Shown: positions 6,256 through 47,224, counted from the first letter of the stretch. The stretch is 64,000 bases of DNA from Candidatus Micrarchaeota archaeon (GCA_014730115.1 WJIU01000024.1:41316-105315), one strand, 5' to 3'. Numbers and translations: made by a program. Notes: generated by a model not told the origin, from the sequence alone.

Positions 6256-6327
6256 GGCCACGGCCGAGAATCGAACTCGGGCCTAGGGGACCACAACCCC
6301 TCACGCTGCCACTACGCCACCGTGGCC
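6256..6327 (-). tRNA. tRNA-His (anticodon GUG) with encoded G-1
   Basis: The minus strand reads GGCCACGG-TG-GCGT-AGTGGCA-GCGT-G-AGGGG-TTGTGGT-CCCCT-AGG-CCGAG-TTCGATT-CTCGG-CCGTGGC-C. It has a 7-bp acceptor stem, a T-loop TTCGATT, an anticodon loop with GTG, an extra 5' G and a discriminator C. Confidence 0.8.
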
Positions 6328-10620: not shown

Positions 10621-11064
10621 ATGGAATGGCAGGAAAAACTGGAACAGTCGGTAAAAGGCAAAAAAGTCCTCTTTCTGGGCGTGGGAAATGAGATGAAAGC
10701 CGATGACGGAACAGGAAAATGTGTTTTGGACAGGCTTAAAACGGAAGATAAGCTGTTCTGCGGTGAGATGCCGGAGAATTTTATTTCAAAAATCAAAAAA
10801 GCCGGTCCTGATGTCGTGATTCTGATAGACTCTGTAGACTTCAACAGAGCGCCGGGGGAAATCTGCCTATGCAGGCCGGAAGTGGTTGAAGGCGGCAGCC
10901 TGAGCACCCATTCAATTTCCCTTTCGCTCATGCAAAAGTTGCTTCCGGGAGTGGAGGTGTATCTCCTTGGAATCCAGCCAAAAAGCCTGGAGTTCGGAAA
11001 GCCCATGAGCCGGGAAGCCATGCAGGGAGCCGAGAATATGGCAAATGTGCTTAACCGCCTGTAA
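10621..11064 (+). CDS. hycI: [NiFe]-hydrogenase maturation endopeptidase (HycI/HybD family)
   Basis: The N-terminal LFLGVGNEMKADDGTG is the HycI/HyaD family signature. 147 aa. It lies immediately upstream of the hydrogenase structural genes. Confidence 0.8.
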   Translation: MEWQEKLEQSVKGKKVLFLGVGNEMKADDGTGKCVLDRLKTEDKLFCGEMPENFISKIKKAGPDVVILIDSVDFNRAPGEICLCRPEVVEGGSLSTHSISLSLMQKLLPGVEVYLLGIQPKSLEFGKPMSREAMQGAENMANVLNRL

Positions 11065-11095
11065 CAATTATATTATTTATCTGCATAAATCAGCC

Positions 11096-11800
11096 ATGCG
11101 ACAGGCACTACCCATCCTTTCATTCCTGATAGCGGCTACTGCCATGTACCTGATACTTGTCAACGGGATAGAGCTTCCTTCCGAGTATGAGATTTTTGCG
11201 GCCCTTGTTTCAATCGCAGCAATCGGAGGGCTGAGCATCGCCGGGCTTTTTGAAAAGTCCATCATCAGGTATGCATATTTTTCTGCGGCAATACAGTTCG
11301 GCTACTTCATGCTGGATGCCAGCACTGCACTCCTGATTGACAAATCGGTCTGGTTTGCAGTTATCCAGTTCATTAATTTCGTCATTGCCGGGGGGCTATT
11401 TGCAATAGTGATTTCGCTGCTGTACAACACGGTGAGAAAAGAGCAGGTCCCTGAGTATTCCGGGCTTTATGAGAAAAACCAGCTGCTTGGGCTTGTCCTC
11501 GCAGTAAGCTGCCTCTCACTGGGAGGCATGCCCGGCTTCAACATATTCGTCGGGGAGTATCTGATCTACGGCTCGCTTTTCGCCGTCCATCCGGCGCTCA
11601 CACTCATGGCAGTGTTTGCCAGCCTGGTGGCATTCATTTTCTATTTCAGGATATGCTACGTGATGTTTGCAGGTACCGAGAGCAGAAAAATCAACTGCGG
11701 CATAATAACCAAGGCAGTGCTGGTTGTTCTTGCACTGCTCACGGTCGGACTGGGGATGCTGCCCCAAATCCTTTTCAGGGTACTGGAGATGTACATATGA
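11096..11800 (+). CDS. Antiporter-like membrane subunit (NuoL/M/N-, EchA/MbhH-like), unusually short (~235 aa)
   Basis: Multi-TM protein with LSLGGMPGFNIFVGEY matching the conserved NuoN/Mrp-type motif. It corresponds to only the C-terminal half of typical 14-TM homologues. The start was chosen at MRQALP (nt 11096), after the hycI stop. Confidence 0.55.
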   Translation: MRQALPILSFLIAATAMYLILVNGIELPSEYEIFAALVSIAAIGGLSIAGLFEKSIIRYAYFSAAIQFGYFMLDASTALLIDKSVWFAVIQFINFVIAGGLFAIVISLLYNTVRKEQVPEYSGLYEKNQLLGLVLAVSCLSLGGMPGFNIFVGEYLIYGSLFAVHPALTLMAVFASLVAFIFYFRICYVMFAGTESRKINCGIITKAVLVVLALLTVGLGMLPQILFRVLEMYI

Positions 11801-11912
11801 AGAAGACAAAGATTTATCTGGGGGGAGAGGACATCGAAGAGGATGAGATGATGCCCAGGGACTTCACCGACTTTCTTGTATCATTCATCAAGGACATCGT
11901 AGGAGGGAGGAG

Positions 11913-13979
11913 ATGAGCACGATAATCAAGAAGTCGCCATGGATAAGCTTCTACAACGCCGGAGGGTGCATCCCAGGGGACACGATGATGATCTTCAGGG
12001 ATGGCGAGATACTGACGGCCAAGGAGATCGTTGAGGACATCCTTGGTGCCAGGGATTTCACCAGACTCGGGAAGAACGAGGTCCTTGCAAGCGAGATAGA
12101 AGCCAAGACCTTGTCATGGAACTGCACTTCGCCTAAGGAGGGCATCATCAGGACAGCCTACAAGCTACCTTCCGATGGCAAGCTCATAGAGATAAACACT
12201 TCCACCACGAGATTGAGGCTCACTCCAGACCATAAGGTGCTCATAGATACGGAGAACGGCCCGCAATGGAGGGAGGCGAAGGATCTGGCGAGGAACGACC
12301 ACCTCTATTCGCCGAGGAAACTGCATGTCGATGACAGCCGGAAGGCGCCCTGCATCCTGGAATGGCTCCCGGGGCCGTTCAAAGCGATATTCAAGGATGG
12401 CATCAAGGAGAGGATAAAGGATAGGCTCAAGAAAAGGTTCGGGAACCTCAGGAAAGCCTCCGATGCCTGCGGTATAAACTACAAGAGGTTGACGCATAGC
12501 GCAGAAGGGCTGAGCGTCAGGGAGCTGCGCTCAATATCCGAAAGAACCGGCATCAGCCTGGGTTGGATGTCGAGAATGCTCATCATGACCGTCAAGGGCA
12601 CACAGAGGTCAGGCATATCGATCCGGGACATCGACGGAGAACTCCTGTATGTCCTCGGGCTCATCGCCTCAGATGGCTGCATCTCATCCAATAAGGGAAG
12701 GAGAAGAAGCTACAGGATAAGGTTCGACAACAATGAGGGCGCCCTCATCTCCGGGTTCACAAGGATCATGGACAAATGGGCTCCCGGATCCAGGATGAAG
12801 GTAGAGAGGGCGGGCAGAGTCCACAGGGCGCATGTCTGCCATTACCCATTCGCATATCTTGCAACGCATATGGGATTGAGGGGATTGTCCAGGAGGGAGG
12901 ACCTGAGGGGCATCTTCCGCCTCCCTGAGAGCATGATTGCGTCTTTCCTGGCCGGTTTCTTCGACGGTGATGGCTCAGTGGTGATCGACAGGGGAGCCGG
13001 CAGGGATAAGCCGAGAATCAGCCTCGAGATAGCCATCAAGAATTACAAAACAGCCAAGATGACCCAACTCCTTCTTAAGAGGTTGGGCATCATCAGCAAG
13101 GTATCGGCCTCCGTGAATAGGAGCAGCTTCGGCACAAGAACAATGCATAGTGTCAGGATAACAACCCCATATGACATCCGCCTGTTCGCAGAGAAGGTGC
13201 CGGTTGCCCACCCCAAGAAAAAAGCAAAGCTCAAGCAAGTCAAAGGGATTTCAAACAAGAGCCGCCAAAGCACCGGTAAGCTCTACCATGCGCCCCTCAG
13301 ATGCGGCAGCATCATCAGACAGGCAAGGAAGGAGGCTGACCTTAGTTCTGAGAGCATATTCGATCCCGCACTCCTCAGCATGATAGAGAACGGGAAGAGG
13401 GTCGAGAAAGGAACGATCGAGAGGGTGTGCAAGAACCTTGAAGAAAGGACAGGAAGAACCGAGCGCACCAAGGAGCTGCGGAAGCTGATCTCTCTGGATG
13501 CCTATCTGGACCCGGTCAAGAGCATACGCGAGATTGCTTCAAAAGATGGGTTCGTGTATAATTTCAACATCGCTGAGACGCACAAATACATCCCAGAGGG
13601 GGCATTCGTGGTGGCCAATTGCAACGGCTGCACGCTGGAGGTATTTGCATGCTTCAATCCGAGATACGATGTTACTCGGTTCGGAATGGAGCTGAAATCA
13701 AGCGCAAAGCACGCCGATGTGCTCGTGATTTCAGGAATAGTGAACCGGCAGAATGTGAAAAGGCTGAAGAAGATATACGGGCAGCTGCCCGAGCCCAAGA
13801 GGGTGGTTGCAGTAGGGGCGTGCGCGGTTACCGGAGGGCTCTACCAGGGCTCTTATTCCCAGGTGGGACCGGTGGACAAGGTAATCCCGGTGGACGTTTA
13901 TGTCCCGGGATGCCCGCCCCGCCCGGAGTCAATAATAGACGGAATAAGGAAGTGTTTGGATGCTAAACGTAACAGATGA
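11913..13979 (+). CDS. Group-4 [NiFe] hydrogenase small subunit (NuoB/EchC-like) interrupted by a 551-aa intein
   Basis: The exteins are 18 aa (ending ISFYNAGG) and 119 aa (starting CNGCTLEV, then GACAVTGG and VPGCPPRPE). Spliced together they restore the GxCNGC proximal-cluster motif. The intervening 551 aa carry intein blocks and two LAGLIDADG motifs. Confidence 0.85.
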   Translation: MSTIIKKSPWISFYNAGGCIPGDTMMIFRDGEILTAKEIVEDILGARDFTRLGKNEVLASEIEAKTLSWNCTSPKEGIIRTAYKLPSDGKLIEINTSTTRLRLTPDHKVLIDTENGPQWREAKDLARNDHLYSPRKLHVDDSRKAPCILEWLPGPFKAIFKDGIKERIKDRLKKRFGNLRKASDACGINYKRLTHSAEGLSVRELRSISERTGISLGWMSRMLIMTVKGTQRSGISIRDIDGELLYVLGLIASDGCISSNKGRRRSYRIRFDNNEGALISGFTRIMDKWAPGSRMKVERAGRVHRAHVCHYPFAYLATHMGLRGLSRREDLRGIFRLPESMIASFLAGFFDGDGSVVIDRGAGRDKPRISLEIAIKNYKTAKMTQLLLKRLGIISKVSASVNRSSFGTRTMHSVRITTPYDIRLFAEKVPVAHPKKKAKLKQVKGISNKSRQSTGKLYHAPLRCGSIIRQARKEADLSSESIFDPALLSMIENGKRVEKGTIERVCKNLEERTGRTERTKELRKLISLDAYLDPVKSIREIASKDGFVYNFNIAETHKYIPEGAFVVANCNGCTLEVFACFNPRYDVTRFGMELKSSAKHADVLVISGIVNRQNVKRLKKIYGQLPEPKRVVAVGACAVTGGLYQGSYSQVGPVDKVIPVDVYVPGCPPRPESIIDGIRKCLDAKRNR
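11967..13619 (+). other. Intein with LAGLIDADG homing-endonuclease domain inside the hydrogenase small subunit
   Basis: Block A is CIPGDTMMIF, block B is RLTPDHKVLID. Dodecapeptide motifs are LYVLGLIASDGCI and ASFLAGFFDGDGSV. Blocks F/G are VYNFNIAETHKYIPEGAFVVAN, followed by a +1 Cys (CNGC). Confidence 0.8.
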
Positions 13980-14304
13980 AATCAAAAAAATGAAGGCAGA
14001 CCGGCTGGTAAGCATAACTGTAGCCAAAGAGAAAGGTAAGAACATAGTGTTCTACCATCTTGCCAGAAACGACAGTCCGGAAATACTGGAGTATAGCATT
14101 AAAGTTCCTAAAAACGAGCAGGTGAAAAGCCTGATTGACCTGTTTGAGAACGCAGCCCTGTATGAAGCTGAGGCAACAGAGCTGTTTGGCGTAAAATTCA
14201 GGGGCAATGAGCTCAGCGGCAAGAGGCTGTTCCAGGGAGAAGGGCCTCCGATTCCCAAGACCTGCGCCTTCAAGGGCGCATTCAGGGTGACAAAAGATGC
14301 ATGA
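13960..14304 (+). CDS. NuoC/EchD-like 30-kDa-type hydrogenase subunit
   Basis: 114 aa with the ELFGVKFRGNE motif typical of NuoC-like subunits. Positioned between the small and large subunits. Confidence 0.65.
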   Translation: MLNVTDEIKKMKADRLVSITVAKEKGKNIVFYHLARNDSPEILEYSIKVPKNEQVKSLIDLFENAALYEAEATELFGVKFRGNELSGKRLFQGEGPPIPKTCAFKGAFRVTKDA

Positions 14305-15457
14305 CAAGATTTTCCCGATTGGCCCCCAGCATCCTTCTCTCAAGGAGCCGATATTCCTGAAGCTCCATGTGGACGGCAGCTACATTACCAAAGCCGAATT
14401 CAACCTCGGTTATGCGCACCGGGGGGTGGAAAAGTGTGCGGAGGGCTACCTGCTTGACACCGCACTTCATGCCGTCCAGAGGACCTGCGGCATCTGCTCC
14501 CAGTGCCATTCCCTGGCATTCCTGAACGCAGTTGAGCCCATGGCCGGGATAGAGGTGCCTGACAAGGTATACCTGCAGAGGCTGCTCTCTGCAGAGCTGG
14601 AAAGGATACACTCCCACCTCCTATGGGGTGGCCTGATGGCACATGAAATCGGCCTGGAGACCCTTTTCATGTATTACTGGCGTGAGAGGGAGCATATCCT
14701 GGACGTATTTGATGACCTTACCGGCAACCGGGTCCACCACTCCCCTGATTTGATTGGAACTGCCAAAAGGGCATTCAACAGGAAAAACCTGGATTTCATC
14801 CTTGAGAAACTCGACCTTATTGAACCGGAAGTAAAAGAACTCAAGGAAGTCATGAGGAGTGAAAGGGTAATCACCAGCAGGTTCAAGAAGCACGGAATGA
14901 TTCCCAGGAAGATGGCAATAGACCTCGGGCTGGTAGGCCCTACTGCCAGAGGCTCAGGAGTGGAGAATGACGTCCGCGTCCATGACCCCTATATGGCCTA
15001 TGCCTTCAAGGAGCTGAAGGTAAAGCCGGTGGTAAGAAACGAATGCGATTCCTGGGGAAGGTCAATGGTCCGATGCGATGAGGTCTTTGAATCTATCGGG
15101 CTGATAAGAAAGGCCTGTGAGATGATTGACCCCAAGGAGGATGTTCCCAAAAGAAAGAACGTTTTCGCAAAAGGAACCTACGGAAGGGGAAGGTCGGAAG
15201 CTCCAAGGGGGGAGAACTTCCATTTTGTGAAAGTTGAAAACAACCGGATTTCAAGAATAAAGATGAGGACGCCTACCCTGGCCAACCTGATATGCTATTC
15301 ACGGATAATGGAGGGTGAAGATATCACCGATGTTCCGGTAATCATGATGAGCCTGGACCCCTGCATCTCCTGCATGGAAAGGGTTGCAGTAATAAGAAAC
15401 GAAAAGAAAGAGGTCTGGACAAGCCACGAGCTGTTTGAGGGTAAAAAACATGATTGA
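14297..15457 (+). CDS. Group-4 [NiFe] hydrogenase large subunit (EchE/MbhL/NuoD-like)
   Basis: The N-terminal Ni-binding motif is RTCGICSQCHS (RxCGxCxxxH). The C-terminal motif is DPCISCMER, followed by a 24-aa extension that is a plausible HycI cleavage substrate. Confidence 0.85.
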   Translation: MHDKIFPIGPQHPSLKEPIFLKLHVDGSYITKAEFNLGYAHRGVEKCAEGYLLDTALHAVQRTCGICSQCHSLAFLNAVEPMAGIEVPDKVYLQRLLSAELERIHSHLLWGGLMAHEIGLETLFMYYWREREHILDVFDDLTGNRVHHSPDLIGTAKRAFNRKNLDFILEKLDLIEPEVKELKEVMRSERVITSRFKKHGMIPRKMAIDLGLVGPTARGSGVENDVRVHDPYMAYAFKELKVKPVVRNECDSWGRSMVRCDEVFESIGLIRKACEMIDPKEDVPKRKNVFAKGTYGRGRSEAPRGENFHFVKVENNRISRIKMRTPTLANLICYSRIMEGEDITDVPVIMMSLDPCISCMERVAVIRNEKKEVWTSHELFEGKKHD

Positions 15458-16277
15458 GATTTTGTATGCATTGCTGCTGATTCCGCTTGCCCTTCTGATA
15501 GAGGGTATCCGGAGGAAAGCAGTTGCAAGGATGCACAACCGGGTGGGGCCGCCCTTCCTCCAGCCTTTTTACGACATTATGAAGCTTATTTCCAAAAAGG
15601 AGTTCAGCAGAAAGAACCTTGTCTTCAATCTTGTGCCTTACCTTGCACTGCTCTGCTCGCTGGCAATGCTGCTGTTCATTCCGTTTGCCATAATAGGTTT
15701 CGACTATGATTTCCTGGTGTTCGGGTACCTTTTCATCCTCCAGGACACCTTTTACATATTCGGGGCAGTGTCCAGCCGGTCCCCATTTGCCATGTTCGCA
15801 AGCGTGAGGGAGCTTCTGCTGATGCTTGGTTACGAGATTACCTTCCTCATAGTGCTTTCCCTGTTCTTCTACGGAACCGGCGCAATGAGTTTCCAGGAGT
15901 TTGCCGCAGAATTCGCCTTCCTGAAGCTTCCGCTGGTCTCACTTTTCCTTCTGTTTACAGGCTTTGTAATACTCAGAATAACGCCCTATGACGTGATGGT
16001 TGCAGAGCCGGAGATTTCAGCCGGATTCTTCTCGGAATATTCCGGAGCGTCCCTGGCAGTCCTGGAAATCGCCGAATTCATAAAGGATTTCATAATATAC
16101 ATGCTGTTTGGCTTCCTGCTTTTCGGCCCCGGATATGCCCTTCTGCTGTCCCCGGTTTTCATGCTGTTCTACATGGTCATGCTTACAAGCTCGCCCAGGT
16201 ACTCAACAGTTGCTACGGTCAAGACATTCCTTTTCCTGGCCCTGCTCGCATTCCTGGACGTTTTCGTGGTGATATGA
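15435..16277 (+). CDS. NuoH/EchB-like integral membrane subunit
   Basis: The N-terminal RRKAVARMHNRVGPPFLQPFYDIMKLI matches the NuoH signature. About 8 TM helices. Confidence 0.8.
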   Translation: MRVKNMIEILYALLLIPLALLIEGIRRKAVARMHNRVGPPFLQPFYDIMKLISKKEFSRKNLVFNLVPYLALLCSLAMLLFIPFAIIGFDYDFLVFGYLFILQDTFYIFGAVSSRSPFAMFASVRELLLMLGYEITFLIVLSLFFYGTGAMSFQEFAAEFAFLKLPLVSLFLLFTGFVILRITPYDVMVAEPEISAGFFSEYSGASLAVLEIAEFIKDFIIYMLFGFLLFGPGYALLLSPVFMLFYMVMLTSSPRYSTVATVKTFLFLALLAFLDVFVVI

Positions 16278-16278
16278 A

Positions 16279-16641
16279 ATGGTTTCAATGATAATCAAGG
16301 TACTGAAGAATCTGCTCTCCAAGCCATTCACCTCAAAATATCCAAAGGAAAAGGCAAAGGTTTCGGTTAATTTCAGGGGAGCCATTCATGTAGACCAGGA
16401 AAACTGCATAGCCTGCAGGCTGTGCGAGGTGAACTGCCCTACCGGCGCCATTGTGGTGGACACAAAGAAGAATTACGCGGTAGTAGACAGGAGCCTCTGC
16501 ATTCTCTGCGGCATGTGCGCAGAGGTGTGCCCGGTGAACGTAATCTGGTTTTCCAACGATTACGAGAACGCAGAAAAAAAGAAAAAGGATTTCAGGAAGC
16601 AGCTGCCCGGCCCGAATCCCCGCCCCGGAAAAAGGTCCTGA
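16279..16641 (+). CDS. NuoI/EchF-like 2x[4Fe-4S] ferredoxin subunit
   Basis: Two CxxCxxCxxxCP motifs are present (CIACRLCEVNCP and CILCGMCAEVCP). Confidence 0.8.
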   Translation: MVSMIIKVLKNLLSKPFTSKYPKEKAKVSVNFRGAIHVDQENCIACRLCEVNCPTGAIVVDTKKNYAVVDRSLCILCGMCAEVCPVNVIWFSNDYENAEKKKKDFRKQLPGPNPRPGKRS

Positions 16642-26859: not shown

Positions 26860-26963
26860 TGCGGTTGCCGGGATTTGAACCCGGGTCGCGAGCTTGGGAA
26901 GCTCGAATCCTGCCATTGCCCTGAACCCCTTTTACAGAAAGGCCCGTCTAGACTACAACCGCT
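26860..26963 (-). tRNA. tRNA-Gly (anticodon CCC) with a putative ~30-nt intron in the D-loop
   Basis: Minus-strand parts are: acceptor GCGGTTG/CAACCGC (7 bp perfect), TAGTCTAG, anticodon arm CGAGC-TTCCCAA-GCTCG, variable CGAC, T-arm CCGGG-TTCAAAT-CCCGG and discriminator A. Removing ACGGGCC...CAGGGC gives D-loop AGAATGGCA and D-stem GTCT/GGAT. Confidence 0.55.
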
Positions 26964-27015
26964 GGTAAAACAACACCTCCAAGAGTTTAAAAATTTTCAG
27001 TTTTCTTATCTTGAC

Positions 27016-28119
27016 ATGGACGGCCCGATTGATGTCAGTGCTCTTAATGGCCTGAAGGATTTGCCTGGCGGGGAATTTACCGCACTTATCGTTTCCATTG
27101 CCGGCCTCTCAATTATCTTCGGCATTTTACTCAAGGTACTCCTGAAAACAAGCAAATACCTTGTCGGCAAAACAGCAACAACACTGGATGACCGCATTAT
27201 CCATGCCTGCGAATCATACCTTCCGGTAATTGCATTTATTACTGCTGTCTGGATTTCCCTGCAGATGGCCTACCCTGATTTCATGCTGCTGGGAAGCTAT
27301 AGTGTCCTGGACATCTACATCATTGCCCTGCTTCTGGTTGCAGGTCTTTTCTCCAGCTCAATTGCAAATGCGTTCCTGCTATGGTACGGGCTGGAGCTCC
27401 AGCCGGTAAAGAAAGGCCTGAGAGAAGAGGACATATACCCGTTTGTAAGGAATGTTGTAAAACTGAGCATAGTATTGTTGTTTCTGGTCTTTGTACTGCA
27501 GAGGCTGGGCTTTGATACCACTGCAATCATAACCGGCCTTGGTGTGGGCGGCCTCGCCGTTGCGCTTGCACTTCAGGACACCCTTGCCAATTTCTTCGCA
27601 GGTGTTCACATACTTGTGGACAGGCCTTTCCAGCCGGGGCATTACATAAAGCTCGACAGCGGTCTGGAGGGAAACGTCCGAAAAATCGGATGGAGGACCA
27701 CCAGGATTATGACCCTGGGCCAGGACGAGGTGGTGGTGCCCAACTCAAAGATTGCAAATGCCACAATACAAAACTGCTCATCCCCGAACAAGAAAACCGG
27801 CGTTCTCTACGAACTCCACATAGATTACAAGGAGGACCTGGAGAAGGTTGAAAAAACCCTTCTGGGTATTTTGAAAAAGGTTTCAAAAGAGAATTCCAGC
27901 CTTGACAGCAAAAGCATCTGGGCACGACCGGACAGTTTTGGGGAATACAGCGTGAAGTTCAAGTTCGGCTACCTGGTGAAGGGATACAAAAATCAGTTTG
28001 GCCTGCTGACTGCGGTAAACAAGGAAATCAAGGAAACCTTCAAAAAGAAGGGAATTACCATACCATTCCCGGTAGCAGTGCGGTACGAAACCCAGAAAAA
28101 GGCCCACAAAAAAGAATGA
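27016..28119 (+). CDS. Mechanosensitive channel, MscS family
   Basis: TM helices are followed by the conserved MscS beta-domain (GVGGLAVALALQDTLANFFAGVHILVDRPFQPGHYI...GNVRKIGWRTTRI). The start was moved to MDGPID so that it no longer overlaps the tRNA. Confidence 0.8.
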   Translation: MDGPIDVSALNGLKDLPGGEFTALIVSIAGLSIIFGILLKVLLKTSKYLVGKTATTLDDRIIHACESYLPVIAFITAVWISLQMAYPDFMLLGSYSVLDIYIIALLLVAGLFSSSIANAFLLWYGLELQPVKKGLREEDIYPFVRNVVKLSIVLLFLVFVLQRLGFDTTAIITGLGVGGLAVALALQDTLANFFAGVHILVDRPFQPGHYIKLDSGLEGNVRKIGWRTTRIMTLGQDEVVVPNSKIANATIQNCSSPNKKTGVLYELHIDYKEDLEKVEKTLLGILKKVSKENSSLDSKSIWARPDSFGEYSVKFKFGYLVKGYKNQFGLLTAVNKEIKETFKKKGITIPFPVAVRYETQKKAHKKE

Positions 28120-40353: not shown

Positions 40354-40734
40354 ATGATTATCGTGAAGGTCCTGGAAATCGGCCCCGGCCCCGCTGCAGC
40401 ACGGCTGCTGGGGGGCATCAGGGAGGAAAATGCAGTTGTCCTGAACCCGCATGCAGTGGGTTCCTGCGAGGAGCTGGAGCTGGCCAATTACCTTGCTGAA
40501 AAATCTTTTGAAAATGGCAGGAACATTGCAAATAAATTCAAGTATGAGTTCCTGCTCTGGCTTTCCGGAACAAGGGACATCAAAAATGCCATAAAGAAAA
40601 CCAAGCCGGAAAAAAACAGGCCTTTCCTGCTGGTGGCCTTTTCAGGAATGGAGGGCATTAAAGGCAGGAAACCGAATCTGAAAAAAGAGGCTGAGCCGCT
40701 GGCCCTGGAAAGGATTTCGCTTTCCAGGCTTTAG
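40354..40734 (+). CDS. cgi121: KEOPS complex subunit Cgi121
   Basis: 126 aa. EFLLWLSGTRDIKNAIKK matches the conserved Cgi121 region. Confidence 0.6.
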   Translation: MIIVKVLEIGPGPAAARLLGGIREENAVVLNPHAVGSCEELELANYLAEKSFENGRNIANKFKYEFLLWLSGTRDIKNAIKKTKPEKNRPFLLVAFSGMEGIKGRKPNLKKEAEPLALERISLSRL

Positions 40735-42284
40735 AGCTCAAGCTGCTTTGCTATCATTTCCTTGTTCACCGGAAGCTCTATCCCCAGCACCTGGTGGATG
40801 AACGCAAACATGTCAATAATTTCGGAGCGGTCCCTGGTTATCTTGTCTGCCATCTGTTTGATGGTGAGGTCCCGGCCAATCAGCTCGTAGAGCATCAGGC
40901 CCTCTTTTCCATACCTCTTGTAAACTGCATACCCGTCATCCCCGTATTTCTTGTGCACGTCTGAGCGGGACAGCGCCTTCATGATTACCATCCCGTTCTG
41001 CATCATGAATTTCAGTATATCCATTACCTCGTAAAGCGGCATGTCCAGCTCCAGGGAAATGTCAATTACATCGCTCTGGCCATCCACCTCCCTAATCACT
41101 TTGCTGCCCTTGTCTCCAAGCTTGAACATCATCTTTGCTTTCAGCTGGACTGATTTCACAATGTCAAGCGGGGCCTTCACCGGAGCGGCCAGCGGAGAGG
41201 GAACTGCCCTTGCCTCCTCCAGGGACTCCTCGCTTTCAATCATGGGGGCGAATCCGCCCCTTGCCTTTTTCTTGGCAGAGGGCGGCGGACGGCGCGGGGG
41301 AGGCGGCCTCCTTCCCCTTCTCCTGGTGGTCGGGCCACCTGCAAAAGGTGGCGGGGGAGGCGGAGGGGGTGCGCGGCCCTTCCCTTTTGGATAATCAAGC
41401 TTTATTATTCCCTGCTCGTCCATGAAGTCAAGGATTTCCACGAGCTTGGCCTCGGTAAGGCCGGTTTCGCCCATAATCTCCTCTGCGGTTCTCTGTCCGT
41501 CTATAAGCGCGTAAACCTTCAGCCCAAGGTCTCCGTATTTGTCTGATATTATCTTTTCCACCGGGCTGAGCTCAGGCCCCTCCGGCGGAGGGGGGGGCGG
41601 TTTTCTTGCAACAGGCTCCAGGGGAGGCGGCTTCTTGAAAGAAGGCGGCTTCTTTTCTTCTGGTTTTTCCTTTTCGGGGGGCGGGGCTTCCTCTTCAGGG
41701 CCTTCCACCTCCTCAAATTCAATGGGCTCAAATTCCGGCTCTTCCCCAGGTTCTTCCTCCGGCTTTTCAGGTTCTTTTTCGGGCTTTTCCTCGGGCTCCT
41801 CGAACCCTTCTACCCCTATCGGCTCTATGGGCTCGAATTCAATCTCCTCCTCCAGGGGAGGCACTTCCTCTGCCTCTTCCTCGGGAAGCTCTTCTAGTGT
41901 AGGGATTTCCCTTTCTTCCTCAGGGAATGCCTCAGGCGGAGGCGGGGCGGGCTTCTTTTCAGGAAGGCCTTCGGGCTTTTCCGGGGCTTTCTTTTCCCCG
42001 GGTTCCTTTGGAGGCTTTTCCTCCTCGGGCTTTTTGGACACCGGAGTGAGCTCAACCATGCCGGCGTCCTGCATGTAATTGATTATCTCATCAAACATCT
42101 TGGATTCTGTTCCAAGGTCCTTTTTCAGCTCGGCAGTAGTCCTTTTGCCGGTAATCGCCCTGTATATCTGAAGCCCTATTTCCCCGTATTTCTTAATCAG
42201 AAGGTTCTGGTTTTTGAATCTCTGAAGAGGGCCCTTTTCGAGTTTTTTGATTTTATAGTCTGAACCCTTTGCCATTAGCACCAC
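40731..42284 (-). CDS. Protein with four tandem ~50-aa winged-helix-like domains separated by Pro/Glu-rich linkers
   Basis: Four repeats share the pattern Y-G-x-x-G-x-x-V/I-Y-x-x-I-x-G-x-x-T-x-x-E-I...Q-G-I/M-V. They are KKYGEIGLQIYRAITGKRTTAEL..., DKYGDLGLKVYALIDGQRTAEEI..., KFMMQNGMVIM and KKYGDDGYAVYKRYGKEGLMLYELIGRDLTIKQ.... The linkers read PEEEKPPKEPGEKKAPEKPE... and PPPPPPPFAGG. Confidence 0.6.
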   Translation of the reverse strand: MVLMAKGSDYKIKKLEKGPLQRFKNQNLLIKKYGEIGLQIYRAITGKRTTAELKKDLGTESKMFDEIINYMQDAGMVELTPVSKKPEEEKPPKEPGEKKAPEKPEGLPEKKPAPPPPEAFPEEEREIPTLEELPEEEAEEVPPLEEEIEFEPIEPIGVEGFEEPEEKPEKEPEKPEEEPGEEPEFEPIEFEEVEGPEEEAPPPEKEKPEEKKPPSFKKPPPLEPVARKPPPPPPEGPELSPVEKIISDKYGDLGLKVYALIDGQRTAEEIMGETGLTEAKLVEILDFMDEQGIIKLDYPKGKGRAPPPPPPPPFAGGPTTRRRGRRPPPPRRPPPSAKKKARGGFAPMIESEESLEEARAVPSPLAAPVKAPLDIVKSVQLKAKMMFKLGDKGSKVIREVDGQSDVIDISLELDMPLYEVMDILKFMMQNGMVIMKALSRSDVHKKYGDDGYAVYKRYGKEGLMLYELIGRDLTIKQMADKITRDRSEIIDMFAFIHQVLGIELPVNKEMIAKQLEL

Positions 42285-42343
42285 ACTTAGCTAGGTAGAA
42301 TATCATCAAAATGTTTATTAAAATACGTAATTTATACTAGCGT

Positions 42344-44041
42344 ATGGAGTTCGACGAGCTACTCATCACCACAGGTGTTGATGCTCTGGTACGGCTTGTA
42401 AAGGAAAGGGAAAGAGTAGAGATAGAGGACGCTGCCGCAATCCTTAACATTCCTGTAAATACCCTTGAAGACTGGTCAAGAGTGCTGGAGGAGGAGGGCA
42501 TCCTCAGGATTGAATACCGGCTTACCCATATCTACTTGGTCTGGATCAAGCCAAGTGCAGTGGAAGTAAAGGAAGAAACAGAGTCATTCTACGAGGAAAA
42601 GAAAGACATACAGAAAGAGGTGCGGGAAATCAAGGAAAAGGTCCAGAAAGAGACCGAGGGCCTCCATGAACTCCATGAGTCATTTACCGGATTTTATGAC
42701 AAGGCATATTCAAGGATAGAGGAACTGGAAAAGACCGTTGCCCCTATTCCCGCCGCAAAAACGCTTTCCGAAGGAATGTATTCAGACTACCAGAAGGACC
42801 TGGAGAAGATGAGCGGTGAGCTTGCAGCCACAAAGAAAGGGATAACGAAAATCAGGTCCCAGATTGATGAGCTGGGAATAGAAAGGGAAACCAGCCCCAG
42901 CCAGGAAATCATTGAGCGCATGGAGAAAATGAAATCAGAAATGCAGGAGATGCAGCAAGAAATCCAGAGGCTGGAAAAAACTGCCAAAGGCAAGTATCCC
43001 AAGGATGTGAAGCTGCCTTCCACTTCTGAAATCAAAAAGAAATTTGAATCAGTGAAGAAAAACTTCCAGCAGCTGCGCTCCCGAAATGCAAAGCTGAGGG
43101 AGGGCATGCTGAGCCTTCAGGAAAGCTCCGAGATTCTGCACGATGTTGCAGAATCCATAATGGGACAGGAGGAAAAAATTGAAAACCTGAACAACGAGGT
43201 CAGGGAGCTGGCCGGTGAAACAGACAAGCTTTTCAAGAAGATGAAGGAAACGGACGAAAAGGCCAAGCGCAACGTGGAGATTGTGGAACGGCTGGGGGAC
43301 TCCGTAGACGTGGCAAAGAACATTCTGAAAAAATTCCCGAGCCAGAAGAAGGTGGTGCAGGAACTGGACCAGCTTAAGGCCCAGGAGCAGGAAGTGATGG
43401 CGCAGACAAAATCGCTTGAGAAAATCCTGGAGGCCGCCGGGGGAAAGCGGATATCCGCCAAGAAGTTTGAGGAGCTTTCCAAGAAGATGGACACCAAGTC
43501 AAAAAAGATGAGCCAGGACCTGGAAGCCCTGGAATCCGCGCTTAGGCATGAAAAATCCACATACCTCACATTCCAGAGAATCAAGGAAAAGATTGTGCCT
43601 TCGATAGAATCATACCAGAAAAAGCTTTCTGAAATGGAATCAAAGATAACCACAATCCGGCAGGAGGCTTCAAGCGAAAGAAAGAACCTGGAAAAGGATG
43701 CCAAGGAGCTTCAGCAAAAGCTGAAAGGCGGGCAGATGCAGGGCATCATGAAGGTTGCAGAGGAAATCAGGGAAAAGAAGAAAATGCTCGAAGAGATACG
43801 CTCCTCCCTCAACAGCCTTGTTTCTGCCTCGGAGAACCTGCACAAGAGGGTTACACTCCTTTCCCGGGAAGCCAGGCTGCTCCAGATAAGGGCCGGAGAG
43901 AAGACCGCCCCGCCGATTGCTCCGGAAAAGGAGGAGGAAATCAGGCACCAGCTGGAGCTGAGCAAGGAAGAGGAGGAGGAATTCCGCAGAAAGAGGGAGG
44001 AGCTCAAAAAGCTGATAAAGAGGCTCTGGGAAACCCAATAA
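42344..44041 (+). CDS. Winged-helix + long coiled-coil protein (565 aa)
   Basis: The N-terminal 70 aa resemble the wH repeat of the divergent gene (TTGVDALVRLVKERERVEIEDAAAILNIPVNTLEDWSRVLEEEGILRIEY). About 480 aa of K/E-rich heptad-repeat coiled coil follow. It is the first gene of the operon. Confidence 0.6.
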   Translation: MEFDELLITTGVDALVRLVKERERVEIEDAAAILNIPVNTLEDWSRVLEEEGILRIEYRLTHIYLVWIKPSAVEVKEETESFYEEKKDIQKEVREIKEKVQKETEGLHELHESFTGFYDKAYSRIEELEKTVAPIPAAKTLSEGMYSDYQKDLEKMSGELAATKKGITKIRSQIDELGIERETSPSQEIIERMEKMKSEMQEMQQEIQRLEKTAKGKYPKDVKLPSTSEIKKKFESVKKNFQQLRSRNAKLREGMLSLQESSEILHDVAESIMGQEEKIENLNNEVRELAGETDKLFKKMKETDEKAKRNVEIVERLGDSVDVAKNILKKFPSQKKVVQELDQLKAQEQEVMAQTKSLEKILEAAGGKRISAKKFEELSKKMDTKSKKMSQDLEALESALRHEKSTYLTFQRIKEKIVPSIESYQKKLSEMESKITTIRQEASSERKNLEKDAKELQQKLKGGQMQGIMKVAEEIREKKKMLEEIRSSLNSLVSASENLHKRVTLLSREARLLQIRAGEKTAPPIAPEKEEEIRHQLELSKEEEEEFRRKREELKKLIKRLWETQ

Positions 44042-44059
44042 TATTAATGGTGATACTGT

Positions 44060-45601
44060 ATGGCAAAAGGAAATGAAAAAGAGAAAGGCGTGAAGGAAAA
44101 GGTTCCTGCAAAGACATCCCTGCTTGCCGCTTACGCATTCAGCAGCGAAGGCCTGCCGGTCGAAGTCCGGATTTTCCGCAGGCCTGCCGATTTCGTGCCC
44201 AAATACGAGGTTACAATTCCGGGCATTGCAGAAGGAACCAAGCTGATGCTTGAAACAAAGCTGAAAGGAGAGCTGGTCACTGAAGTAAAGCTGGACATCA
44301 GCGAGATACTGGACCCCAAGAAATTCTCAGAAGTGAAATCAAAGTTCCTGGCAGCAGCCAGGAAAATCCTGGAGCGCAATTTTCCCTCGCTCCCCGACGA
44401 CAAGAAAGGCATTCTTGCCGTATACCTGCTGCAGAAGACTCTTGGGCTGGGAGAAATGGAGGCATTGCTTGCAGATGACAAGCTGGAAGAAGTCGTGGTC
44501 AACAACGCCCAGGAGCCGGTCTGGGTATATCACAAGAAATTCGGATGGTGCAAGACCAACCTTAAGCTGAAGAACGAGGGAATAGTCTATGATTACGCAT
44601 CCCTGATTGCAAGAAGGGTGGGCCGCCAGATAAATGTGCTCAACCCCACCCTTGATGCACACCTGCCCAGCGGGGACCGTGTCAACGCAACCCTTTTCCC
44701 GATTTCCGCCTTTGGAAACACCATAACCATCAGGAAATTCTCCAGAAATCCATGGACCATTACCAGGTTCATCAAGTCCAAGACAGTATCACCGGATGTT
44801 GCCGCCCTTATATGGCTCTGCATTCAGAACGAGCTTTCACTTCTGGTGAGCGGTGGAACCGGAAGCGGCAAGACATCTTTCCTCAATGCAATGGCCGCGC
44901 TAATTCCGGCCAACCAGAGAATAGTTACTATAGAAGACACCAGGGAGCTCACCCTTCCCTCATTCCTGCACTGGGTGCCCACCGTAGTAAGGGAGCCGAA
45001 CCCGGAGGGAAAGGGAGAGGTCACCATGCTGGACCTGATGATTAATGCCCTTAGGCAGAGGCCGGACCGGATTATCGTCGGTGAGATAAGAAGGCAGAGG
45101 GAGGCAGAGGTGATGTTCGAGGCCATGCACACCGGCCACAGCGTCTATGCAACCCTTCATGCCGATGATGCAGCGCAGACAATTTCCCGGCTTACCAATC
45201 CCCCGATTAATGTGCCGCATGAGATGCTTGATGCTCTCTCCGGCATTGTTGTAACGTTCCGGCACCGCAGGTTCAATATCCGGAGGGTGCTGGAGTTTGC
45301 GGAAATGACCCGAAAAGGCGAACCCAACGTATTGTACAGATGGGACGTAAAGAACGACAAGGTAAAGGGAACCGGGAAAATGTCCACCCTTGCCGATACC
45401 CTTTCCCTTTATGCCGGAATGACCCCCAAGGAGATAGACCAGGATGTAGATGAAAAAGTCAAGATACTGAACTGGATGGTCGATAAAGGCTATTACGAGG
45501 TGGACCAGGTGGGAAGGATAATCTCCAATTACTACCTGGACCCTGCGGCTGTGCTTTCCGCGGCCCAGAAGAACAAGGACTGGGATTTCAAGAAGGTGTG
45601 A
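44060..45601 (+). CDS. Type IV filament / secretion ATPase (VirB11/GspE/FlaI family)
   Basis: Walker A LVSGGTGSGKTSFLNAMAALIP, Asp/His boxes, TIEDTRELTLP, Walker B RPDRIIVGEIR. 513 aa. Confidence 0.85.
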   Translation: MAKGNEKEKGVKEKVPAKTSLLAAYAFSSEGLPVEVRIFRRPADFVPKYEVTIPGIAEGTKLMLETKLKGELVTEVKLDISEILDPKKFSEVKSKFLAAARKILERNFPSLPDDKKGILAVYLLQKTLGLGEMEALLADDKLEEVVVNNAQEPVWVYHKKFGWCKTNLKLKNEGIVYDYASLIARRVGRQINVLNPTLDAHLPSGDRVNATLFPISAFGNTITIRKFSRNPWTITRFIKSKTVSPDVAALIWLCIQNELSLLVSGGTGSGKTSFLNAMAALIPANQRIVTIEDTRELTLPSFLHWVPTVVREPNPEGKGEVTMLDLMINALRQRPDRIIVGEIRRQREAEVMFEAMHTGHSVYATLHADDAAQTISRLTNPPINVPHEMLDALSGIVVTFRHRRFNIRRVLEFAEMTRKGEPNVLYRWDVKNDKVKGTGKMSTLADTLSLYAGMTPKEIDQDVDEKVKILNWMVDKGYYEVDQVGRIISNYYLDPAAVLSAAQKNKDWDFKKV

Positions 45602-45604
45602 TAA

Positions 45605-47224
45605 ATGACTGAAGAGGCTTTTCAGGCGGCAATCGAAGAAGCAAAAAAGCTGGAAAAAAAGGCAATAGAATACGAGCCATACGAGGGAGAAGTAAGGATA
45701 GAAATAATGGTTGAAGTCGAGCCTGAAGAGTATGTGGACCTTGACTACAAGGACCTTTACAACCTTTACCAGAGAACCCAGAAGATATTAAGTGCTGCCG
45801 GCATGGGCGTACTTGCGGAAAGGCCGCCGGAGGAAGCCGCCCGGGCCACTGCGGAAAGCAGGGAAGTTGAAACCAGGCTAAAGAAGATGACCAGCGAAAG
45901 GCTGAAGGAAGCAGAAGAGATTGCCAGGGAGCCGGTGGTTGCCGAAGAAGAAGCTCCTGTGCCCCCGGTTACCCAGGAAATAGAAATTGAAAAGGAAGAG
46001 CCGCAGGAAATAGAGTTTGAGGGACCCCCTGAAAAGCCTCCGGAGAAGGAAGTGGAAATCCCGTTCAAGGCACCCTCGCCGGAAGAAGTGCCCGCGCCTG
46101 AGCCGGCTACTCCCGAAGAAGCCCCGGAAGTGCCTTCCCCCGAGGAGAAGGCTCCGGAAATTCCCGAGGCAGAAAAGCCTGCCAAGGCTCCGGCCCCGAC
46201 ACTGCCTGAGCCCGAAGAGCCCCCCGCACCGGAGGTTGAACCTTCCTTGGAAAGGGCGCCGCCCCAGCCAAAGGCAGTGCCTCCCACTCTGAGGGAAACC
46301 CCAGGCGAGGCGGCTGCGAGAAGGTATGAGCAGATTGAGCAGCAGATAAGGGACATGATGGGCGAAGAGGCCGACGAGCGCGCCCTCAAAAAGAAAATGC
46401 TTGAGCTTACCAAGCAGCTTTTCAAGGAAAAGATTACCAGCAAGAGAGAAGAAATAAAGATGCAGATAAAGGTCCTGAAAAACATGCTTGCAGTTTCAGG
46501 TGAGGGCAGAGCCAAAAAGAAGAGGGCCCCTGCCCAGACCAGGCTGGAAACCATCCTCGCATCCCAGCAGGAAGAGCTTGCCCACACCAAGGGAAGGCTT
46601 ATCGATGCCTACAACAAGCAGATAATGCAGATCAAGGAGAAATTCTACGATGACATGTCATCCATAGAGAACCCGCAAAAAAGAAAGAAGACCTATGAGA
46701 CATTCGTGTCATCAGTTACCATGCTTGTCCAGAACCTGCCGGATGCAGTGAAAAAGGAAAAGGAATACCTTTCCCAGAAACATGCCGCGGAGCTGAAAAG
46801 GGCAGAGGAATCCCTGGGGGCAAAAGACAAGGCACTGAAAAAGAGGATAAAGGAAAGGAAAGATTACATCCAGGAGAACTATGATGAGGAGTTCTCCATG
46901 GTAAAGCATATCGTCGGAAAGGAGATAGAGAACCTGATAGAAGTGGCCGGGTCGGAGACATTCCGGAAGCCTGAGGAAAAGGAGAAAAAGAAAAAAAGAA
47001 TGGCCGAGCCCACCGAAATTGTCAAGGAAATCAACGAGACCGACGAAGGCACCCTGCTCTATTTCCTGCACTCCAAAAATCCCGACTATTACAAGAAATT
47101 CGAAAGGAAAAAAATATCCAGGGCAGAGGCGGTGTTCAAGGCCAAGGAGCTGCTTGCAAAAAAGAAAGGATTAAGTGATAGCATGATAAGGAAGTATTTC
47201 AGCGGTAAGGAGGAGAGAGGATGA
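45605..47224 (+). CDS. Acidic Pro/Glu-rich + coiled-coil protein (539 aa), filament-locus component
   Basis: The N-terminal 200 aa are a PE/PA-rich low-complexity region (PEEAPEVPSPEEKAPEIPEAEKPAKAPAP). The C-terminal 300 aa are K/E-rich coiled coil. Its start overlaps the ATPase stop (ATAAATG). Confidence 0.55.
   Translation: MTEEAFQAAIEEAKKLEKKAIEYEPYEGEVRIEIMVEVEPEEYVDLDYKDLYNLYQRTQKILSAAGMGVLAERPPEEAARATAESREVETRLKKMTSERLKEAEEIAREPVVAEEEAPVPPVTQEIEIEKEEPQEIEFEGPPEKPPEKEVEIPFKAPSPEEVPAPEPATPEEAPEVPSPEEKAPEIPEAEKPAKAPAPTLPEPEEPPAPEVEPSLERAPPQPKAVPPTLRETPGEAAARRYEQIEQQIRDMMGEEADERALKKKMLELTKQLFKEKITSKREEIKMQIKVLKNMLAVSGEGRAKKKRAPAQTRLETILASQQEELAHTKGRLIDAYNKQIMQIKEKFYDDMSSIENPQKRKKTYETFVSSVTMLVQNLPDAVKKEKEYLSQKHAAELKRAEESLGAKDKALKKRIKERKDYIQENYDEEFSMVKHIVGKEIENLIEVAGSETFRKPEEKEKKKKRMAEPTEIVKEINETDEGTLLYFLHSKNPDYYKKFERKKISRAEAVFKAKELLAKKKGLSDSMIRKYFSGKEERG

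Follow-up and report, generated by a model that had tools for sequence, protein, structure and literature searches.

Inteins are textbook residents of proteins involved in replication, repair and nucleotide metabolism. In a 2016 survey, COG category L accounted for 66.9% of the hosts of archaeal inteins and category F for 8.3%, and the V-ATPase A subunit was the sole energy-conversion host in its list of the top 15 archaeal hosts (Novikova et al. 2016, PMC4760082). Here we analyse a 64,000-nucleotide stretch of DNA from a Candidatus Micrarchaeota archaeon (GCA_014730115.1, WJIU01000024.1:41316-105315; hereafter the window), in which the gene for the small subunit of a group-4 [NiFe] hydrogenase is interrupted by a large insert. 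Judged from its sequence, this insert is very probably a canonical (class 1) LAGLIDADG intein, a selfish mobile element residing in the hydrogenase gene of a member of the Micrarchaeota (DPANN). No paper describing a hydrogenase intein was found in full-text literature searches, for which the 2016 survey was judged on its top-15 hosts only. The kind of element is well known; its host protein and site appear not to be described in the literature that we found, and the sequences are already public and partly auto-annotated. The original prediction, made by a model from the DNA alone, had called an intein in an energy-metabolism hydrogenase uncommon. This agrees with the literature but less well with public databases, where this small-subunit site holds an intein in at least 14 protein clusters, some of these clusters bearing the automatic JGI annotation 'Ni,Fe-hydrogenase III small subunit/intein/homing endonuclease'.

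The closest described structures are those of PI-PkoII (Tko Pol-2, 2CW7), PI-PfuI (1DQ3) and the TliVMA and PhoVMA inteins (7QSS, 7QST), which share with our element a HINT domain split by a two-motif LAGLIDADG core and extra DNA-binding domains. They are its best structural matches (Foldseek E=1.4e-23 to 7e-16; target TM-score 0.65-0.80), but they are only 12-18% identical to it in sequence, and their hosts are DNA polymerase, ribonucleotide reductase or V-ATPase A. We also take all four to have a penultimate His, where the hydrogenase intein has Ala. The VMA inteins resemble the hydrogenase intein in having a COG category C host outside replication and repair; they differ in that they interrupt the ATPase motif of a catalytic A subunit, whereas the hydrogenase intein sits at a metal ligand of a redox subunit, and the V-ATPase relatives of the latter were found in subunit B, not A. 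With regard to iron-sulfur proteins, the P. abyssi MoaA intein is presumably a class 1 intein with Cys nucleophiles, an Fe-S enzyme host and redox- or stress-sensitive splicing. The M. tuberculosis SufB intein, also class 1 with Cys nucleophiles, resides in a host of iron-sulfur metabolism, and redox or stress sensitivity of its splicing has been reported (PMC8891592). For both, homology to the hydrogenase intein was seen only at the general intein level; moreover, the SufB intein is not reported to lie on a cluster ligand, whereas the hydrogenase intein interrupts the CxxC ligand motif itself. A further curated intein in an archaeal Fe-S metabolic enzyme is that of NF045703 ('tetraether lipid synthase Tes, intein-containing'; radical SAM), which weakly matches the N-terminal part of our element (E=9e-7). 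It has another host, and the window protein is not a member of that family (27 bits against a cut-off of 1700). Finally, the small subunits MbhJ (6CFW), HycG (7Z0S) and EchC are full-length homologues of the spliced extein with four cluster cysteines, and those that have been solved or characterised are without an intein.

Anatomy of the insert and its insertion site

The interrupted gene is an open reading frame (ORF) for 688 aa at 11913..13979 (+), open over 2067 nt; antisense ORFs over the region are short (≤110 aa). An identical protein from a metagenome-assembled genome (MAG; 134 kb contig) is present in NCBI as MBD3210278.1 under the name 'NADH-quinone oxidoreductase subunit NuoB', which mentions neither the intein nor the hydrogenase nature. 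Residues are numbered here on the precursor (Cys19 is intein Cys1, and Cys570 is the +1 residue), and the insert boundaries were set by alignment to intein-free alleles. The 551-aa insert occupies exactly nt 11967-13619, from Cys19 (TGC, 11967-11969) to Asn569 (AAT, 13617-13619). The junction DNA reads GGAGGG/TGCATC ... GCCAAT/TGCAAC (a slash marks a junction), and the insertion point falls between Gly18 and the first Cys of CNGC. The insert is preceded by an N-extein of 18 aa (MSTIIKKSPWISFYNAGG; 11913..11966, +), which aligns to MbhJ residues 20-34 (6CFW_J) and whose SPW motif is kept in all alleles. It is followed by a C-extein of 119 aa plus stop (13620..13979, +), which starts at Cys+1.

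Profile searches agreed with this division. Pfam Oxidored_q6 was matched at residues 570-680 only (E=4.6e-32), whereas Intein_splicing spans residues 27-565 (48.9 bits against a cut-off of 35.8), matching the N-terminal HINT segment even on its own (E=1.6e-8), and LAGLIDADG_3 scored 66.5 bits (cut-off 22.5; E=2.5e-18). NCBIfam placed intein_Nterm at 19-111 (E=8.5e-8; 33.1 against a cut-off of 24.5) and the NuoB family at 572-680. These domain matches are far beyond chance. They bear out, with exact boundaries, the original prediction of a 137-aa EchC/NuoB-like protein interrupted by a 551-aa intein element, and the motifs that it had quoted (CIPGDTMM, TPDHKV, LGLIASDGC, LAGFFDGDGS, and a terminal Asn followed by Cys) were all found where it had placed them.

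The N-terminal HINT half (aa 19-155, boundary approximate; 11967..12377, +) is beta-rich, with a predicted local distance difference test (pLDDT) score mostly >80, and carries block A, CIPGDTMM (aa 19-26; 11967-11990), and block B, TPDHKV (aa 104-109, with T104 and H107; 12222-12239). It is followed by a first helical insert (about aa 156-240; 12378..12632, +), with AlphaFold2 helices at 164-221 and pLDDT ~90, which is probably a DNA-contact or linker domain. The LAGLIDADG core (aa 241-432; 12633..13208, +) was matched by LAGLIDADG_3 in two stretches and contains motif 1, LGLIASDGC (aa 248-256; 12654-12680; catalytic D254), and motif 2, LAGFFDGDGS (aa 346-355; 12948-12977; catalytic D353). Downstream of it lies a second, helix-turn-helix-like helical insert (about aa 433-528; 13209..13496, +), modelled as five helices with pLDDT ~90. 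Neither helical insert was named by Pfam, and the likeness of the second to HTH_3 was not significant (E=0.05). PI-PfuI and PI-PkoII have extra DNA-binding domains, and by analogy both helical inserts may help to bind the target. The C-terminal HINT part (aa 529-569; 13497..13619, +) comprises block F, FVYNFNIAETHKYI (13551-13592, with H557), and block G, GAFVVAN (aa 563-569; 13599-13619).

The AlphaFold2 model, which drew on 35 related sequences, had a mean pLDDT of 82, with the intein mostly >90. Foldseek ranked PI-PkoII (E=1.4e-23), TliVMA and PI-PfuI as its best matches in the PDB; whole-chain alignments to PI-PkoII and PI-PfuI span 586-618 columns, and the LAGLIDADG core also matches free-standing enzymes (I-DmoI and the I-OnuI family). 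By sequence alone, only PI-PkoII was detectable (E=4e-4). On its sequence and predicted fold, the insert is a canonical intein, its HINT splicing domain enclosing a LAGLIDADG endonuclease.

Removal of the insert yields a 137-aa product that aligns without gaps across the junction to MbhJ of Pyrococcus furiosus (6CFW_J; E=3.1e-43), NAGGCNGCTLE of the spliced extein facing NSGSCNGCDIE of MbhJ. The product is equally gapless against HycG of E. coli formate hydrogenlyase (7Z0S_G; E=8e-32), and a contiguous CNGC (aa 570-573; from 13620) is thereby restored, as had been proposed. The predicted spliced junction peptide is ...SFYNAGGCNGCTLEVF... Four cysteines of the product, C570 (13620-13622), C573 (13629-13631), C637 (13821-13823) and C667 (13911-13913), align with four cysteines of MbhJ, and the proximal [4Fe-4S] cluster of MBH is held by four MbhJ cysteines (PMC8165549). 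The host small subunit is of the MbhJ/EchC type and has the four Cys that a single proximal [4Fe-4S] cluster requires. Since C570 aligns with an MbhJ ligand Cys, the +1 residue of the intein would be the first ligand of this cluster, in keeping with the earlier claim of insertion at the conserved cluster Cys motif.

Residue conservation, which can be read directly from the alignments as can the anatomy above, points to a functional splicing domain. All expected nucleophile and block B residues are present (Cys1, T104/H107, Asn569 and Cys+1). Across an alignment of 13 alleles with 37-62% identity, T104, H107, N569, C570 and C573 are invariant; C19 is found in each of the 12 alleles whose N-terminus is complete, the sole deviating row (P0013) being N-terminally incomplete. 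Loss of the terminal Asn or the +1 Cys, named beforehand as what would count against an intein, was thus not seen in any of the 13. The 35 related inteins show no variation at N569, V548 and Y549 and very little at C1 and C+1. That the splicing residues persist in alleles whose overall identity falls to 37% argues for selection on splicing.

With regard to mechanism, the evidence fits the standard four-step class 1 pathway with Cys1 and Cys+1 as nucleophiles and cyclisation of Asn569. Once the 688-aa precursor is translated, Cys1 would undergo an N-S acyl shift, the resulting thioester would be attacked by the thiol of Cys+1 (C570), cyclisation of Asn569 would free the intein, and an S-N shift would link Gly18 to Cys570. 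This would yield a small subunit of 137 aa in which the CNGC...C...C site of the proximal [4Fe-4S] cluster is intact. In the precursor, the CNGC motif would be kept apart from the N-terminal strand by a 62-kDa domain. Because the cluster-binding motif would be complete only after splicing, cluster insertion and hydrogenase assembly should depend on it. The freed intein may in turn cut intein-free alleles across ...GGAGGG^TGCAACGG... and then be copied in by repair (homing). From the residues and the model described here, we infer that the precursor splices, that the endonuclease is active and that cluster insertion depends on splicing. The site would be a favourable one for homing, because its target codons rank with the most conserved of the gene, are widely shared and include the obligatory +1 Cys nucleophile.

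Same-site alleles, empty sites and related inteins

Searching 5.8 billion proteins turned up 12 more small subunits whose intein occupies this position, with full-length identities of 37-62%; a thirteenth (P0171) came from an exhaustive search of 1.84 billion representatives. A scan of genome contigs returned only one, partial, same-site copy, on a Woesearchaeota contig (L001), and a metagenome scan yielded no further same-site allele, only relatives at 25-34% identity. Where named, the carriers are Micrarchaeota and Aenigmarchaeota MAGs. The Aenigmarchaeota allele (L004) lies in a full 14-gene Mbh/Mrp-type operon, so that the same site is occupied in two hydrogenase architectures, the minimal one of the Micrarchaeota and the full Mbh/Mrp-type one of the Aenigmarchaeota.

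Intein-free alleles, whose survey the original prediction had called for, proved to be many. The spliced extein retrieved thousands of uninterrupted small subunits, the closest of which is 88% identical and several of which are from Micrarchaeota. Syntenic operons without the intein were found in L002 (GCA_043812915.1) and on a 58-kb JGI contig (that of P0053), the latter being syntenic with the window from the YjbQ-like gene to the downstream AAA+ gene. In L002 the empty site is exact to the base, AACGCCGGAGGG^TGCAACGGATGC; at the DNA level, AACGCCGGAGGG^TGCAACGGATGCAC of L002 corresponds to AACGCCGGAGGG/TGCATC...(intein)...GCCAAT/TGCAACGGCTGCAC of the window, and over the insertion point L002 reads TTCTTCAACGCCGGAGGGTGCAACGGATGCACACTTGAA. 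The intein-bearing L005 and the intein-free L002 share flanking genes (Topo VI A/B and a KH protein), and the window, L002 and L005 are about equidistant from one another (identities of 74-76% for the large subunit and of 79-81% for the extein). We also considered a fixed fusion with an endonuclease gene, which the original prediction had named as an alternative should the insert be found in all homologues; this was rejected, as most homologues are without the insert and it splits Oxidored_q6 inside the CxxC motif.

In a neighbour-joining (NJ) tree of the exteins, 120 intein-free alleles are interspersed with 13 intein-bearing ones, which form about seven separate runs, and for 10 of the 13 the nearest relative is intein-free rather than intein-bearing. 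This sporadic distribution, which like the exact empty sites is a direct observation, is the pattern of a mobile element, with gains by homing, losses or both. The window copy keeps both catalytic Asp residues of the endonuclease (D254 and D353) and is, on this sequence, probably still mobile. In other alleles these residues are replaced (by Glu and Asn in P0006, and both by Asn in P0007), or the first helical insert, which lies between HINT half and endonuclease, has been lost (P0006 and P0009). The three alleles still hold all splicing residues, and their sequences show the endonuclease decay expected in a homing cycle. All stages of that cycle are represented: intact copies, Asp-replaced or domain-deleted copies, and empty sites.

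The original prediction needs widening here, since relatives of the element form a larger set of inteins that also reside in other redox metalloenzymes. Its most similar full-length relatives (about 25-35% identity, profile positions 1-552) are inteins in other hosts, whose identities were confirmed by Pfam. They were found in the [NiFe] hydrogenase large subunit (P0014, P0172, P0174) at ERICGI/C, the second Cys of RxCGxC; in HdrA-like flavin adenine dinucleotide (FAD)/Fe-S proteins (P0015-P0024) at FPTLDCSI/C; in acetyl-CoA synthase (ACS) beta (P0029-P0048, P0202, P0209) at site 1, FYSCSL/CQSFAPDH, and site 2, ...KN/CGCFE; and in a radical S-adenosylmethionine (radical-SAM) protein (P0187) at /CNMACEVC, before the first Cys of the CxxxCxxC motif. 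These four hosts carry the closest related inteins, each directly before a Cys of a metal-ligand motif. We take the +1 Cys to be a metal ligand in the large subunit, ACS and the radical-SAM motif, and likely also in the HdrA-like proteins. The two ACS sites presumably correspond to Cys509 and to Cys595 of the Cys-Gly-Cys motif (Moorella numbering), both in A-cluster Cys motifs. On one contig (L003:4074-6887), the large subunit carries an intein and the small subunit of the same operon does not.

Other relatives were found in conserved hosts outside replication: in 2-oxoacid:ferredoxin oxidoreductase (POR) beta, thiamine pyrophosphate (TPP) domain, at YV/CYDNEAYMNTG (P0017, P0026, P0173-P0186); in POR alpha at ATASQGL/CLMHE (P0183); in aldehyde:ferredoxin oxidoreductase (AOR) at AT/CDVGAHH (P0019); in V-ATPase subunit B at two sites (P0025-P0031, P0180, P0185); and in pseudouridine synthase Cbf5 at YIRKL/CHDVG (P0175, P0176, P0182). 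The POR, AOR, V-ATPase B and Cbf5 inteins all have Cys at +1, and nearly all are without a penultimate His. Inteins of MCM, Topo VI-B and PolB are more distant and end in HN/T or HN/C. Host labels of the related inteins include Asgard (Hermod- and Hodarchaeota), DPANN, Methanosarcinales and Anaerolineae. Bootstrapped NJ trees supported families per site (NiFe-small 82, NiFe-large 81, HdrA 98, POR-beta 85, Cbf5 88, and MCM separate at 99) and did not resolve the relations between these families. A sister relation of the small- and large-subunit inteins, seen in one NJ tree, was rejected as unsupported (bootstrap 20/100).

Weighing of the explanations

Several observations weigh against a mobile, splicing-competent intein and need to be considered. 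The original prediction of a canonical intein stands in that all splicing blocks are present, but it has to be refined in one respect: the penultimate residue is Ala568 in place of the His that usually helps Asn to cyclise. Every small-subunit allele has A, S or K here, and most close relatives are likewise without His. Chen, Benner and Perler, writing in J Biol Chem in 2000, are said to have found that several natural inteins without the penultimate His still splice, so this weakens the case only slightly. In addition, the inteins of the window and L005 are 57% identical where their exteins are 79% identical, which on these sequences would fit long residence with loss as well as active homing. 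The composition of the intein (GC 0.54; GC at third codon positions, GC3, 0.71) differs mildly from that of the host (0.47-0.54 and 0.56-0.66) and does not point to a recent arrival. Scans of IMG/VR with the single protein and with a profile found no close or full-length relative in viral contigs, the matches there being to generic LAGLIDADG domains at 19-30% identity. Finally, what speaks for splicing and DNA cleavage is sequence and a structural model. We note that a foreign-composition signature was also examined as such and rejected, a GC3 of 0.71 against 0.56-0.66 being too weak for recent transfer.

It is possible, but in our view unlikely, that the intein has been domesticated and splices conditionally, its splicing being gated by redox state or metal availability and serving as a checkpoint for metallocentre assembly. 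The Cys+1 thiol could be tied up by a disulfide with C573 or Cys1, or by binding Zn or Fe, so that the cluster site of an oxygen-sensitive hydrogenase would be made only under reducing conditions; this idea overlaps with that of a selfish intein. Cys1, Cys+1 and Cys+4 (of CNGC) do come together at the splice junction, and the relatives recurrently precede a metal-ligand-motif Cys with a second Cys 2-4 residues away (CGI/C in the large subunit, CSI/C in HdrA-like proteins, CSL/C and /CGC in ACS, and /CNMACEVC in the radical-SAM protein). Redox- or stress-sensitive splicing is known from the P. abyssi MoaA and PolII inteins. It is also documented for the M. tuberculosis SufB intein, in an Fe-S protein (PMC8891592). 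However, most close relatives are without the intein, which is therefore dispensable, and its endonuclease is intact, as is usual for selfish elements and not for domesticated ones; for these two reasons plain selfishness is favoured. A conserved Cys codon is, moreover, both a good homing site and a required nucleophile, which explains the pattern without regulation, and the 13-allele alignment shows no conserved extra Cys inside the intein. An extension of the same idea holds that the related large inteins, the small-subunit intein being one branch of them, form a radiation that uses metal-ligand cysteines as +1 nucleophiles, with splicing gated by redox state or metal availability. Its hosts may be oxygen-sensitive metalloenzymes of anaerobic archaea and some bacteria ([NiFe] small and large subunits, both ACS A-cluster motifs, HdrA-like and radical-SAM proteins). 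From the sequences we give this proposal a similarly low probability. If true, a cofactor site would be completed only when the cofactor can survive, which would make such inteins a post-translational checkpoint and not pure parasites.

That the intein is dead, with no splicing, no small subunit ever made and the hydrogenase operon in decay, appears very unlikely. The missing penultimate His could be read in this way, as could the Asn of block F where Asp is common (VYNF), and DPANN genomes undergo reductive evolution. But the 2067-nt frame is open, and the nucleophiles and block B are kept across 13 alleles down to 37% identity, which would be unexpected without selection for splicing; an A, S or K at the penultimate position is, furthermore, common to the related inteins. 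The remaining operon genes are without defect: the large subunit still has its four Ni-Fe cysteines, and its protease is encoded too. An artefact of assembly or binning, in which a chimeric contig would have placed an endonuclease gene within the small-subunit gene, deserves mention as the window derives from a MAG. We consider it extremely improbable: 13 more clusters, which come from independent assemblies (NCBI, JGI, ENA and Logan), show the same junctions in frame, same-site carriers include long contigs (150 kb for L004 and 46 kb for L005), and the boundaries fall exactly at Cys1 and at Asn/Cys. The sporadic distribution over occupied and empty sites also speaks strongly against it.

A selfish class 1 intein in the hydrogenase gene would follow a standard mechanism, and the finding therefore extends the known host range and does not introduce a new kind of element. 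It indicates that inteins in DPANN, Asgard and other anaerobic lineages also colonise core metalloenzymes of energy metabolism, at positions that directly precede cysteines expected to bind Fe-S and Ni centres. This recurrent placement of related inteins in anaerobic metalloenzymes merits a systematic survey. For annotation, hydrogenase classifiers based on length or hidden Markov models may mis-sort or drop intein-bearing genes. The small subunit could also serve as a natural test system for the order and coupling of splicing and metal-cluster insertion and for redox or metal control. In addition, the intein and endonuclease sequences are divergent (<20% identity to solved ones) and come with a defined 137-aa host, which gives them possible value as tools.

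The hydrogenase operon and other features of the window

The host enzyme is, by the content of its compact operon, a group-4 membrane-bound [NiFe] hydrogenase (Mbh/Ech/Hyc type). Downstream of the small-subunit gene are genes for a NuoC/MbhK-like subunit (13960..14304, +; Pfam Complex1_30kDa), an intein-free [NiFe] large subunit of 386 aa (14297..15457, +; Complex1_49kDa and NiFeSe_Hases), a NuoH/MbhM-like membrane anchor (15435..16277, +; NADHdh, E=1.8e-39) and a NuoI/MbhN-like 2x[4Fe-4S] subunit (16279..16641, +; Pfam Fer4 families and NCBIfam NuoI). The motifs RTCGICSQCH (14480-14509, +) and DPCISCMER (15356-15382, +) were read directly in the large subunit, which also carries a 24-aa C-terminal extension. 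Upstream lies a gene for a HycI-type hydrogenase maturation endopeptidase (10621..11064, +; Pfam HycI; NCBIfam hydrog_prot, 80.5 bits against a cut-off of 47.45). The two large-subunit motifs, the C-terminal extension and the adjacent HycI protease gene argue that the host is a genuine [NiFe] hydrogenase. Identity with complex I NuoB was considered and rejected, since the motif is CNGC and not a tandem CC, the Ni-Fe cysteines are kept in the large subunit, and HycI is adjacent.

A full-length antiporter-like proton-pumping subunit (MbhH/EchA/HycC type) is absent from the operon. Instead, a half-size antiporter-like membrane subunit of 251 aa (11045..11800, +) matches only the C-terminal half of NuoN/MbhH, covering positions 246-470 of 494 of the NCBIfam profile. 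The subunit is likewise half-size (227-234 aa) in L002, L005 and the P0053 contig, and the genes in the first two (L002:7184-7888 and L005:5181-5885) match the same C-terminal half. The Micrarchaeota operon thus differs from Mbh operons in its half-size antiporter-like subunit and in having no Mrp-type module, and the membrane part of the Micrarchaeota hydrogenase appears minimal, consisting of this half-size protein and the NuoH-like anchor. Directly upstream of the small-subunit gene is a conserved 39-aa ORF (MKKTKIYLGGEDIEEDEMMPRDFTDFLVSFIKDIVGGRR; 11797..11916, +), whose stop overlaps the small-subunit ATG at 11913. The peptide had no Pfam match; L002 and L005 encode it at the equivalent position, and it is among the genes called on the P0053 contig.

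Elsewhere in the window, a six-frame scan with a profile of the hydrogenase intein found no second intein over the 64 kb. An MCM helicase gene (51143-53182, +; 679 aa) is intein-free; MCM is the commonest archaeal intein host. ARAGORN called a tRNA-Gly(CCC) at 26860-26929 (-) that overlaps the start of the ORF at 26875-28119. At its gathering threshold, the Rfam tRNA model returned only a tRNA-His (6256-6326), which makes the tRNA-Gly either a doubtful call or an atypical gene. Finally, three ORFs of 517, 565 and 539 aa without a Pfam match at E≤1e-5 (40731-42284, -; 42344-44041, +; and 45605-47224, +) flank a T2SSE-type secretion/pilus ATPase gene (44060-45601). Given this arrangement, the region at 40731-47224 may be an archaeal surface-structure locus.

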